The position numbers and the translations under genes are program-made. A DNA stretch of 64,000 nucleotides from Pristiophorus japonicus. Lineage: Eukaryota. Shown one piece after another: positions 612-62,882 of this stretch. A model generated the notes under the pieces. That model saw only the letters and a list, made by a program, of their open reading frames with translations. It made no database searches and was not told where the DNA came from. Location of the stretch: positions 130,634,001-130,698,000 of the forward strand of contig NC_091980.1 of assembly GCF_044704955.1 (NCBI RefSeq), in the 5' to 3' direction. Each line of letters opens with the position of its first letter. Within the stretch, counting starts at the first letter, position 1.

Positions 612-2962
612 TCCTTCTACTTTGACCGGGATGATGTTGCCCTGTGTCACTTTGCTGAGTTCTTCAAGGAGCAGTCACATGAGGAACGTGAGCATGCTGA
701 GAAACTGATGCAATTCCAGAATCGCCGTGGAGGACGGATCATCTTGTCTGACATCAAGGTTTGGTTCAATTATTTAGTGGCCTTCTGTCTGGATACCCTT
801 AGACCTGATTGTTTCAAATACCTCCTAAAGCAATTGATTCCGTGGTAGTGGAATTCAGTAATTCTATATTCCTGTGACATTATTTATGGTAAAATGGACT
901 TCTGGTTGCTTTTTTATCCTATTTTTCTTTGTACTGTCTTTTGTATTTTGTTTGTTCCATTGTAAGTGAACTACCTGTGATTTTCCTCTTCAGAAACCAG
1001 AGCAGGATGAGTGGAGCAATGGTCTGGATGCAATGCAGAGAGCTATGCAGATGGAGAAGAATGTGAACCAGAGTCTGCTGGATCTGCACACAATCTCCAC
1101 TGGGAGCACTGACCCTCATGTAAGTTCCTCATGTGGGTTTCTGGGCAACTTGGAGGTGGTGGAACATTGCTATCCTTGAGCTGTTTCAAAAGTGCTCCAT
1201 GTCCAATAGCTTTGTTTTTAGGGGGGGTGGTCTCTCTTGGGTTCTTCAGGGGGTGGGGGAGAGGACCATGAAATTGTCCAACTGTGGACATTGAGACATA
1301 AATGGGTCCCAATGTTTCCAGGATCTGAGCTCTCATTTGTAGGGGAGGATGAAAACCCCCTCATTTTACCCAGAAGGAAAAGGGCTGTGGGATCAGTCTG
1401 TGCTGTGAATTGAAACCGATGGAAGGAAAACTTTGGGACACAAATGGAGACCCCCCCAGTGTTTGGACTCAAAGGAAAGGGAATTTAATTTGGAACTATC
1501 TACCAAAAAGTTTGAAATCCTCAAGTGCACATGGAAGAAACTATGAACTTTAATCGAATTTGGGATTTTTTAAAAGGTCTGCAAGAAAAGGGGTGGAGTC
1601 AATATCAAAAGGGCCAGTTTGGACATTGGAACTAATCAAATTGTCTGGGAACTGTATACCCTCGAAACTTGCCCCTTGAAAACATTAGCATTTAAACAAT
1701 GCCACATACATATTCCAACACCTTTTTCATCAGGCATAGAAATATCTGGCTCAGGCCAGACTAGCACAATGGCTACAGGAGGCCAATGCAATCAACACCC
1801 ACTCAAACCTTGAGTAGGTTAAGATCAGTGGGGAAAAAAAACCTAAAAACCTCAAACTGCTGCATTTTTCAAAATCAAAAGTCCACCAATGAGAAGAATC
1901 GACTTCAGCAGGAGAGGCAGACTGGATAATCTGGCTATAAACAAGGGGTTTCTGACGTAGTGAAAAAAGAAATGATGATTTTCCCTGCCCTCATGATTCA
2001 ACAACCACAACCACAACCACAAGCCTCTCGACACTGAAGGAAAACCAGTGTCCGAAGATAGAAGAAACAAACCACCAGACTGCGGAAGGCACAGTAGTGA
2101 GTATAACCTCCGGTCCCCAGAACTCCCAACTCAGTTAGGCCAGGAAAGGTGGGAGGTTGGGCATTGTACTGCTAAACTGGTGTCAAGATTTTCGTTGGGT
2201 CCGTTTTAGTGGGATTTAGGGGGATTGTTTTGTTGGTGTATTGCTGTTTGTTGAATTACACCTTGTCAAATAAATTGGAAGCCTAAAGTTCCTCTTGGAA
2301 TCACCTTGTCTCAGTTCTATTGTATTACATCTCCTGATCGTGAGTCTTATGTCAGAACTGTGTAAGGGAAGCTAGGAGCGCCTTGAACGCTCAACTCTGT
2401 GTCACAGGCGAGGGGGAAAAAGGTGTTCGGAGTGTTTGACACTCACAGGTGCCTCACAGGCTAGGCAAAAGCTGTGGGGACGCACGAGTCTCAAAACCCC
2501 CTTCATAAGCTGTGGATACAGTCTCTCCAGGGGTGCTCTTGCAGCACTCAGGGTACCTCACAGGTCAGGCATAAGCTGTGAGGGCAGAAGCCCAGAGAGA
2601 GACACCCAAGGCACAACAACAACCCTGTGAAAACCCCTTACACATTGCACAGTAGCAACTGGATCATTAGAGCAAATGTAAATCAATTTCAATGGCCCTG
2701 CCTGATCCTTCTCCACTCCTAGAGAATTAAAATCCTAACTTGGGGGGGATGCACTGATCCTTGATATCTGTTACTGGCCATAACTCATTTCCCTCTTCTC
2801 TTTCAGTTGTGTGACTTCCTGGAGACCCACTACTTGGATGAACAAGTCAAGGTGATCAAGAAGCTTGGTGATCACATCACCAACCTGAAGAGACTGGGAG
2901 CCCCTGAGAATGGCATGGGAGTGTACCTTTTTGACAAGCACACTCTGGGGGAGAGTGACTAA
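612..2962 (+). CDS. FTH1-like: Ferritin heavy-chain-type gene A1, 5'-partial: exon2 612-758, exon3 994-1119, exon4 2807-2962 (exon 1 lies before the window)
   Basis: Exons of 147/126/156 nt with AG/GT boundaries translate to [49 protein letters not shown] / [42 protein letters not shown] / [57 protein letters not shown] at 3080-3085. Confidence 0.93.
1338..2642 (+). mobile_element. Solo LTR (1305 bp) in intron 3 of ferritin A1
   Basis: Termini TGTAGGGG...CCCCTTACA, 4-bp TSD CATT (1334-1337 / 2643-2646), TATAAA 1936, AATAAA 2269. Absent from the homologous intron of A2 and A3. Confidence 0.88.
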
Positions 2963-4739
2963 ACTGACTGGGATCAAGCTTATTGTGTTTAGTACTTGTA
3001 TTTATATAATCAGGCCCCTATACTGTAGGGAATGAATGCTTGTGACTTTGTACAAAAAGAGCTGAAACCCATAACAGTAAATAAACTGTTCAACATTGGG
3101 CTGTGTTTTGTCACCTTGTAAATTTGAGTGGTTACTTATTTTTCATTTAACATAACTTGGCTTCTATCAAACAAGAATTACACTGACCTGTGCAACATTT
3201 ATATGGGATTCAGTCTTATGAAATATGTTTTTCCCCCTTGTGTAATGTCTATGTATTGACTGGGCCATTCAGGCACCTGTTATAAGATCGAAAATGTTCA
3301 AGAATGTGTTAGGACAACTGACAGCCCCATGGGATATTGGCCCAGTGACCAAAAGTCTGGTCAGAGGTATGTATTGAGGCGGTACAGAGATGTTTAGGAA
3401 GGCATATCTAGAGCTTGGGACTGATAAGCTGTATACAATTACCTGTTCCAACGATCTGTTTTTTACAAAGGAGAATTCAATCCAACAAGATGTAACATCT
3501 GCTAAACGCAGGACCAATTTCCCAGTAATTCATTGTTGCACCATTTCAGTCCAATGAAGGAAAAAGTCCTGGATTAGCTTCCCATTTTGTCTATCTGCCT
3601 CGTGAACGAACAGCAGTTTGTATTCAATCGCTGCAACAGATCCTCTTCAGTTATGCAGGTCGTTCAGTAATGGGACTCATCACTGCTGCTTTAGGATTGC
3701 TGTTAAGCTTTGTAGGCAGAAAAGAAATATCTCAGCACACTGAACTCTGGGCACTACAATTGGGTGAGGAGGGAAAGCAACAGCTGTCATCAGCTTGTTG
3801 TCATAGCTTCAGTGCTTCGTGTGGATACCCTAGTGGTTCTGGGACAGCTTCTCTTCCGTCTGCTCCCCTAATGGTTGAATAACTTGCCAACACAACCTCC
3901 ATTCAAACATGAATAAGGTATTGCAAGACTAACGATACTCCAACAACATTTAATACTTGGGGAAGGTGTAAATGTATTTAATTCCACAAAGCAAAAGGCA
4001 CAAGATGTTAAACCCATTTCTGGCCACAATGCCTAAGCACTCAATTTATAAGCCTATCAATTTTTTTTTGTTAGTACCACTGTGAATTTCATTACTATCA
4101 CCCTGGATTAGATTTCTATTTCTCTCCTTCATGGCTATGAATGGATACAAATGGTACTACTGCTCCAATAATCCAGTGTTTACGAGTTATTTTTAGGAAT
4201 TTAACTGAGAACTGTGTTGAGTGCAATTAAATAGCCAGGCACAGACATTCCAGGTTAATGTCTTGGCAACACTCAAGCGCCTTTCGGCTATCGATGTTAC
4301 AAACTGTCATATATTGATGAGCCACAGTTCCACGAGTCGGCCTGGGTTTGCGTGCTGATGGGTTTGATGGCTTCATGTATCAACAAATCTCTAGCTCACT
4401 CGATGTGAAACTTTACAGGTGCTCGTGTTTTAAGAATTACTTACAATTTACAGCACAGGTAAAAGACCATTTGGGCCAACTGGGCCATGCTGTGGTTTAT
4501 GCTCCATGTGAAACTTGTCCCACCCTACTTCATCTAGACCTATTAGCATATCCTTCTATTCCTTTCTCCTTGTGTTTATCTAGCTTTCCCTTAAATGCAT
4601 CTATGCTCTTTGCATTCAGAGTTATTACTGCGTGTAGCTCAGTAAACGCACCGCTGCTGCTGTGGATTTTCTGTTAAGCTGTGTGGGTAAAGAAGTGAAT
4701 AACAGCTATAAAGATCCGCAATGTTTGAGCTGAAGGACA

Positions 4740-62529: not shown

Positions 62530-62780
62530 TTGAGATGTCAGCCAATGATGCTCATTCTTCAAAGATGTGATTGGCTCTGGGAGTCCATCTCCCTCCTCCC
62601 TTTACTTGATTGGTGCTCTGAGAAGATGCAACTTCTGATTGGGTATTGATGACTGTCACTCATCATCAAGAGTGCCACACCCAGGATTATCCCTCAGTAT
62701 AAATATTGGAGTTTGATATTAGTGAAATGTTATCTTTGTACTTCTAAAAAGTTTTTACTTTGGAAAAATAAAATATTAAG
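62530..62780 (+). promoter_or_regulatory. Proximal promoter and 5' leader of ferritin B3
   Basis: TATAAATA 62698-62705; several CCAAT/ATTGG boxes. Confidence 0.6.
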
Positions 62781-62882
62781 ATGGCTTCTCAAGTGTGTCA
62801 GAATTACCACAAGGACTGTGAGGATGCTGTCAACAAGCAGATCAACATGGAGCTCCATTCCTCCTATGTTTATCTCTCTATG
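62781..62882 (+). CDS. FTH1-like: Ferritin gene B3 exon 1 (gene continues past the window)
   Basis: [34 protein letters not shown] followed by the GTGAGT donor. Confidence 0.92.

Follow-up and report, generated by a model that had tools for sequence, protein, structure and literature searches.

A tandem array of two alternating ferritin genes

The stretch of the Pristiophorus japonicus genome analysed here (contig NC_091980.1 of assembly GCF_044704955.1, positions 130,634,001 to 130,698,000, 64,000 nt in all; hereafter the window) contains six ferritin loci, identified through motif scans and exon extraction, which lie on the forward strand in A-B-A-B-A-B order and present a four-exon, phase-0, GT-AG ferritin gene structure (Table 1). 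Self-alignment revealed colinear repeats of up to 17 kb over the entire window, and since both of its ends align to internal repeats, the array is open at both sides; the window includes no genes that flank the cluster. tblastn searches with six ferritins of four types detected no additional exons in the window. These results confirm the six alternating loci and the open-ended array outlined in an earlier interpretation made from the DNA letters only (the sequence-only reading), together with its inventory of two complete reading frames (A2 and B2), one copy without exon 1 (B1), one frameshifted copy (A3) and two copies cut by the window (A1 and B3). The A1 frame is open, with exon 1 beyond the window start. 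B1 is a 5'-truncated, promoterless copy, because a deletion removed its promoter and exon 1, and the reading frame of its exons 2-4 is still open. The A3 pseudogene carries two frameshifts, from a loss of 2 bp in exon 1 and of 1 bp close to the end of exon 4, so that two of the four loci wholly inside the window are broken.

The unit periods as found were 23,852, 31,469, 31,501 and 29,509 bp. Once the 7.3-kb long terminal repeat (LTR) element and the 1.3-kb insertion were subtracted and the B1 deletion was corrected for, two estimates of the core unit (24,111 and 24,185 bp) were obtained, bearing out the two-gene unit of about 24 kb that had been proposed, with raw periods of 23.9-31.5 kb. The window is thus about 2.5 repeats of a 24-kb two-gene unit within a shark tandem ferritin cluster. 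Spacers between units are 4.4-9.5% apart by substitutions and carry private insertions and deletions, which argues that the copies are not uncollapsed haplotypes, one of the explanations that the sequence-only reading had named as a possible refutation.

Contigs of four sequencing runs were aligned to positions 8800-26200, and the joints listed did not include the one expected from the B1 deletion. Run X1 is DNA, possibly from the sample used for the assembly itself, and depth summed over contigs conveys no copy number; three runs of unspecified kind gave little cover of A2, which counts neither way. One contig of run X23 begins precisely where A2 exon 4 does and has 42 unaligned letters ahead of that point, a weak hint of a spliced paralog transcript to which no weight is given here.

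Table 1. Coordinates of the ferritin loci, their promoters and other features of the window (position 1 is its first letter)
Feature	Position	Strand	Remarks
Ferritin A1	612-2962	+	exons 2-4: 612-758, 994-1119, 2807-2962
Insertion of 1.3 kb, A1 intron 3	1338-2640	.	short direct repeat on flanks; single copy in window
Deletion junction	9337/9338	.	1,636 bp lost relative to unit 2
Ferritin B1	11979-17895	+	exons 2-4: 11979-12125, 17304-17429, 17740-17895
Decayed Gypsy-type LTR retrotransposon, B1 intron 2	12641-17189	-	LTRs 93% alike
Minisatellite of 33 bp, B-to-A spacer	21002-21212 and 52622-52738	.	very deep cover in all four aligned runs
A2 promoter and leader	22756-22931	+	three ATTGG boxes (one CTGATTGG at 22783), CAGCTG E-box, TATAAATA at 22856
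Ferritin A2	22932-25516	+	exons 22932-23033, 24464-24610, 24852-24977, 25361-25516; intact, 176 aa
Decayed non-LTR retroelement (RVT_1), A-to-B spacer	30461-31870	+	repeated at about 7950-9336 and at 60001-61435
B2 promoter and leader	33100-33271	+	ATTGG boxes (CTGATTGG at 33126), TATAAATA at 33189
Ferritin B2	33272-49495	+	exons 33272-33373, 43480-43626, 48904-49029, 49340-49495; intact, 176 aa
LTR element of 7.3 kb, B2 intron 1	34157-41510	-	private to B2; LTRs of about 560 bp, 95% alike by substitutions
Gypsy-type LTR retrotransposon, B2 intron 2	44146-48786	-	RNase H and integrase domains; orthologous to the B1 element
A3 promoter	54264-54439	+	boxes as in A2; TATAAATA at 54364
Ferritin A3 pseudogene	54440-57002	+	two frameshifts
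B3 promoter	within 62570-62882	+	CTGATTGG at 62635, TATAAATA at 62698
Ferritin B3 exon 1	62781-62882	+	cut by window end; promoter and exon 1 span 62570-62882

Exon similarity, selection and copy loss

The comparison of A and B genes outlined a sharp difference between their coding and noncoding parts. Promoters, introns and 3' flanks are 59-77% alike (Jukes-Cantor distance 0.27-0.59), with promoters at about 65% identity and promoters plus untranslated regions (UTRs) at 65-76%, whereas exons 2-4 are 93-96% alike, with a synonymous divergence (dS) of 0.105-0.194, and identity drops sharply at most exon edges. Synonymous sites do not appear to be slow in themselves, because dS is not below the noncoding distance in B1-B2 (0.112 versus 0.054-0.096) or A2-A3 (0.091 versus 0.047-0.113); A1-A2 is the exception, with a dS of 0.012, from one change, versus 0.036-0.059. 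Against a noncoding difference of 30%, binomial tests were significant for all six A-B pairs (P <0.006), and against a value of 24% they remained so for the three A-B1 pairs (P <=0.002). In addition, diagnostic sites of A3 are A-like in exons 2-3 (7/8) and B-like in exon 4 (4/4), inside A-type flanks, and 3 of 15 listed A-type family members carry an exon 4 of B type. The far greater likeness of exons than of introns and the B-like exon 4 of A3 argue strongly for gene conversion limited to exons, with A and B as old paralogs whose exons have been held alike while promoters, introns and UTRs diverged. Over roughly its final 45 nt (17695-17739 and 25316-25360), intron 3 is also near-identical between the A and B types, which could mark a conversion tract or else conservation around the branch point.

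Over exons 2-4, dN/dS was 0.18-0.49 in nine of ten pairs and 0.99, from five differences, in A1-A2. Exon 1 of B2 and B3 differs by six non-synonymous changes and one synonymous change. Duplication of whole A+B units makes the array grow, deletion and frameshift take copies away, and retroelements gather in it. Together with the two broken loci and the dN/dS values, this supports the birth-and-death dosage expansion envisaged in the sequence-only reading.

The Gypsy element is common to B1 and B2, and hence older than their duplication. Two DNA contigs of run X1 join positions 12437 and 17301, which suggests that B-type copies without the Gypsy insertion in intron 2 exist elsewhere. In the 7.3-kb element, a polypurine tract and a possible primer-binding site accompany a broken envelope-like frame that is rich in cysteine and has a hydrophobic segment at its end; gag and pol were not recognised in the element, and the envelope-like frame returned no Pfam or PDB match. 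The 33-bp minisatellite is presumably a common shark repeat.

Family, residues and promoters

A search with exon 4 returned 386 proteins, and 120 clusters at 90% identity were listed. A2 matches one annotated P. japonicus protein in full (P0458, 176/176) and another at 175/176, and the best listed match of B2 reaches only 164/176. P. japonicus provides the representative of 31 of the 120 listed clusters. The A-type cluster has 22 members, all 15 of those listed being from this species, and related clusters have 127-180 members, with relatives from at least 11 shark genera. In a quick 74-row tree, A2 and B2 fall in a clade made up solely of cartilaginous fish and separate from canonical shark H chains (SH-like approximate likelihood-ratio test, 99). 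A careful 45-row tree, from which four long outgroups and 25 redundant rows (29 in all) were dropped and whose bootstrap is not fully settled, supported the cartilaginous-fish multicopy clade (88/99), joined it to a second shark clade and tetrapod L chains (89/91) and grouped shark H with bony-vertebrate H (98/93), leaving out the window genes. Both trees were built without Greenland shark sequence, and approximately unbiased (AU) tests rejected no placement (p-AU 0.131 with H, 0.052 with L alone, 0.192 with M). An affinity to L is argued against by passages of Yang et al. (PMC13214024), which place FTL on another chromosome and treat the family as a paralog of FTH1a.

Several observations concern the neighbours of this family. 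The second multicopy shark clade (P0290, P0510-P0523, P0289, P0293, P0296, P0304), annotated mostly as 'middle' or 'heavy subunit-like', lies on the same contigs as the main cluster in several species. Its members carry K62 (15/15) and mostly E141 (14/15), on which grounds they appear L-like and probably ferroxidase-dead, and it is possible that the FTL count of Sahm et al. refers to them. Another type of shark ferritin (P0152, P0164), with A144 and with R23 and Y30 kept, is found on the cluster contig in Heterodontus; a contig of run X8, with a loose end at 17794, carries a similar motif, which suggests that this type is a broadly expressed neighbour. The ray protein P0284 (Pristis) falls in the Met144 clade yet has K27 and R65, indicating that the Met144 family is older than the shark-ray split and able to lose its ferroxidase centre. 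In three frogs (P0097/P0268, P0203/P0273, P0112/P0285), genes for 'heavy chain A/B' and 'light chain, oocyte isoform' are on contigs of equal length and hence probably on the same chromosome. A catshark gene model in which a receptor phosphatase is fused to ferritin (P0111) was dropped as synteny evidence, its ferritin type not being resolved.

Exon 2 matched PF00210 above the cut-off, and a protein 98% identical to A2 (P0006) matched solved ferritins at 2e-87, the best solved relatives being H chains (E about 1e-87 to 1e-85). The window genes are hence predicted to encode eukaryotic maxi-ferritin subunits, by their ferritin domain and closeness to solved 24-mer subunits; a single-sequence structure model was unusable (predicted local distance difference test 38.7). 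The seven ferroxidase ligands (E27, Y34, E61, E62, H65, E107 and Q141, with numbering checked against human H) are all present in A2 and B2, as the sequence-only reading had stated, and in 59-60 of 60 family proteins, these 60 being the listed members of four clusters. The window genes are all of ferroxidase type, and no ferroxidase-dead L-like gene was found in the window. The motif FFKEQSHEE, with Glu57, was likewise found in the copies generally, with A3 carrying FFKEHSHEE. Glu57 had been taken as an M/L feature, a role that does not hold because shark and frog H-type chains carry it: it is present in 3/3 cartilaginous-fish H chains, 9/9 frog/turtle A/B chains and 10/21 tetrapod L chains.

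A salient feature of the family is Met at position 144, a neighbour of the ferroxidase site, in 59 of the 60 proteins; among the window copies, A1 has Val. The H, M, frog/turtle and single-copy shark chains tallied, 44 in number, all have Ser, Ala or Thr at this position, and Leu is found in 18 of 21 L chains. In mitochondrial ferritin, residue 144 is described to act at the Fe2 site, and S144A alters the oxidation rate (passages of PMC12092714); by analogy, Met144 may slow the ferroxidase centre. The surface bound by NCOA4 also differs. Passages of PMC4592949 and PMC11076521 report that NCOA4 needs R23 of FTH1 and contacts A19, N22, Y30, R80 and F82. At the position of human R23, 58/60 family proteins have Lys, and at that of A19, 42/60 have Asp. 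Tyr30 is kept in 43/60, and the four exon 1 copies of the window carry Cys, Ser, Phe or His there and Lys at 23, so that neither R23 nor Y30 occurs in them; the R80 position is Trp in A2. Unusual F30 and D149 residues in B2 suggest that this copy is possibly decaying.

The four promoters share an arrangement of boxes. A TATA motif (TATAAATA) stands 76 nt (A) or 83 nt (B) upstream of all four ATGs, accounting for four of its five forward-strand matches in the window, and CTGATTGG stands at -149 or -146 in all four, accounting for four of its six occurrences in the window. The boxes lie at matching positions in A and B despite an identity of about 65%. AATAAA is found 116-119 nt past each of five stops (118 nt in A2). 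CCAAT/Y-boxes are typical of oocyte promoters, a point for which a literature search found no supporting source.

H mRNA carries an iron-responsive element (IRE). Rfam detected none here at gathering or E-value thresholds, and a relaxed stem-loop scan of the window returned 12 matches, none of them in any leader, with start sites placed from the TATA box and no shark H mRNA serving as a positive control. None of the four leaders folds better than shuffled sequences do (z -0.68 to 0.49). A CAGTGT 51 nt upstream of the A2 ATG was considered as an IRE loop and rejected, the IRE stem being absent. We infer that the leaders are short and IRE-free, for which reason output would scale with gene number.

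Interpretation and related systems

Large ferritin clusters have been published for sharks. Passages of Sahm et al. (10.1101/2024.09.09.611499) describe 155 FTL and 179 FTH1 copies in the Greenland shark, more than 85% of them full-length, in clusters syntenic with those of the white shark, the largest being ovary-specific. Passages of Yang et al. (PMC13214024) describe 59 tandem FTH1b copies in this species, five of them 5'-truncated, and higher counts in sharks generally. The expansion is thus already known and, with its genes annotated, the array itself largely so; the comparison with mammalian ferritins drawn in the sequence-only reading is misleading for a shark host. That reading stands as to birth-and-death dosage expansion, falls as to the mammals and Glu57, and had passed over four features: the signs of gene conversion, the lack of an IRE, Met144 and the changes to the NCOA4 surface. 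The terms 'iron-responsive' and 'conversion' are absent from the main texts of both papers (figures and preprint supplements lay outside the term search), and their available passages, together with these term searches, contain no mention of IRE absence, TATA spacing or Lys at the NCOA4 site; the passages mention neither a two-gene unit nor residue 144. The main text of Yang et al. makes no reference to Pristiophorus, and the bioRxiv version of that paper lacks the ferritin passage.

The array is probably best explained as part of an iron-independent, dosage-amplified maternal iron store that evolves by birth-and-death plus gene conversion. Under this explanation, duplication of the A+B unit expands the array, deletion and frameshift remove copies, retroelements accumulate, and conversion would keep A and B exons alike while promoters, introns and UTRs drift apart. 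Intact copies would be transcribed from TATA/CCAAT promoters into short-leader mRNAs without IRE, so that output would be set by the number of genes and by an ovarian programme instead of by cell iron. The products would assemble into a 24-mer with all ferroxidase ligands, in which Met144 probably slows or reshapes the Fe2 site and the altered NCOA4 surface probably slows turnover. Their net role would be that of a bulk maternal iron store and oxidant buffer in very large, long-developing eggs. A role in bulk iron storage is plausible, and would fit the ovary-specific expression published for the Greenland shark.

Several points weigh against this explanation. Ovary specificity is borrowed from another species, the identity of the window family with FTH1b is indirect, and passages of Yang et al. 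(PMC13214024) describe FTH1b as transcribed to some extent in fin and blood. The case for an altered NCOA4 surface is weak, because Lys is conservative and keeps the aliphatic part of Arg23, and because canonical shark H itself deviates from human at N22 and F82. CCAAT counts are only modestly above those of shuffled sequences (P 0.026, 0.06, 0.015 and <0.001), and an upstream non-coding exon with an IRE is possible, given that the start site is placed from the TATA box. As to conversion, the three A-B2 pairs are only marginal (P 0.057-0.087) at the most cautious noncoding value of 24%.

Extra copies could alternatively serve antioxidant and ferroptosis control in the soma, allowing the body tissues of lipid-rich or deep-water sharks to handle iron flexibly. 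This was proposed for FTH1b by Yang et al., who also see some copies transcribed in fin and blood (passages of PMC13214024), and it finds a parallel in the hadal snailfish, where 14 fthl27 copies are expressed across tissues and lower reactive oxygen species in 293T cells (PMC10746142); the intact ferroxidase ligands of the window proteins also agree with it. We nonetheless consider it unlikely, given the ovary specificity of the largest cluster in passages of Sahm et al. (10.1101/2024.09.09.611499), the leaders in which no IRE was found, and the changes to a surface required for ferritinophagy (Lys at R23 and a non-Tyr residue at Y30 in 4/4 exon 1 copies). Furthermore, many shark genera possess this family in large numbers, and its expansion is hence not tied to longevity.

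The chances are similarly low that the amplification is mostly neutral, with few copies that matter, the rest generated by unequal crossing-over in a repeat-rich region, and frames kept open by conversion alone. The two broken loci among the four wholly contained, the open frame of promoterless B1, the odd substitutions of B2 with its best listed match of 164/176, and the 6:1 ratio of non-synonymous to synonymous changes between exon 1 of B2 and B3 are all as expected under neutrality; the dN/dS values in nine of ten pairs, the ligands and M144 near-invariant across genera, the promoter boxes at matching A and B positions and, in passages of Sahm et al. (10.1101/2024.09.09.611499), the full-length copies and conserved synteny run counter to it.

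It is less likely still that the A and B subunits differ in function, or in the cells or stages that express them, and that their 1:1 pairing is selected as in the H/L pair. Such pairing would account for the strict alternation across three units, the divergence of promoters and UTRs, the C29 found in 15/15 listed A-type members and the M165/V167 state shared with Heptranchias proteins. Alternation is, however, automatic when a two-gene unit duplicates, the A2 and B2 proteins are close and both have all ligands, B-type exon 4 occurs in A3 and in 3/15 A-type members, and no ferroxidase-dead L-like gene lies within the window. Finally, although A1 and A2 are 98.8% identical in coding exons 2-4, an artefact of uncollapsed haplotypes is hardly credible given the private 7.3-kb, 1.3-kb, 1.6-kb and 2-kb indels, the spacer divergence, the presence of each gene in three versions and the same clusters in independent assemblies of many sharks.

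A further proposal goes beyond the maternal-store explanation, and we advance it only tentatively, as somewhat unlikely: that the shark cluster represents a distinct vertebrate subunit class, an egg-store chain on the branch to tetrapod L that keeps its ferroxidase ligands but has Met144 at the Fe2 site, is free of IRE/iron regulatory protein control and of NCOA4 ferritinophagy, and has been multiplied to many copies and homogenised by conversion limited to exons. If true, this class would stand as a living intermediate between H and L, and the expansion, read so far in terms of 'ferroptosis and longevity', would be recast as maternal iron provisioning. The finding is of modest importance, since the two papers hold different views of function (ovary-specific in one, ferroptosis and longevity in the other). 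The new details, namely IRE absence, Met144, the altered NCOA4 surface and exon-limited conversion, offer simple tests between these readings, and the Met144 family is a natural variant for studies of ferroxidase tuning and of L chain origin.

Among known systems, the shark tandem clusters share with the window genes their tandem, intron-containing, many-copy arrangement and a 5'-truncated member, and the window's protein clade includes white shark sequences; unlike the FTH1/FTL clusters, the window has ferroxidase-type genes only and no L-like gene. Vertebrate H chains (FTH1/fth1a, shark and chimaera H) agree with the window genes in the seven ferroxidase ligands, in the residues of the three-fold channel and in exon structure, but have S/A144 (10/10) and R and Y at human positions 23 and 30 (10/10). 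Tetrapod L chains share a bulky hydrophobic residue at 144 (Leu in 18/21), K147 (20/21) and often Q90 (12/21), but have K62 (21/21) where window copies have E62, and lack E27, H65 and mostly Q141. The shark L-like clade has K62 and mostly E141, whereas the window proteins keep E62 and Q141. Ray-finned M-type chains form a separate clade with A/S/T at 144 (22/22) and E or D at 60 in 18/22, whereas window proteins combine E57 and E64 with H60 and thus lack the full acidic 57/60/64 set. The hadal snailfish fthl27 (PMC10746142), also a non-canonical vertebrate ferritin whose ferroxidase ligands are intact, has likewise undergone tandem dosage expansion, though with 14 recent copies and broad expression. 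Invertebrate yolk ferritins (Lymnaea, Schistosoma) are egg-directed, as is proposed for the window genes. Their lineages are separate, and the yolk ferritin of Lymnaea is secreted, whereas the 176-aa window chains are without N-terminal extension. Schistosoma ferritin mRNAs are without IREs, according to a reference title in PMC1488847, and a passage of the same source describes ferritin mRNA as abundant in fish ovaries.

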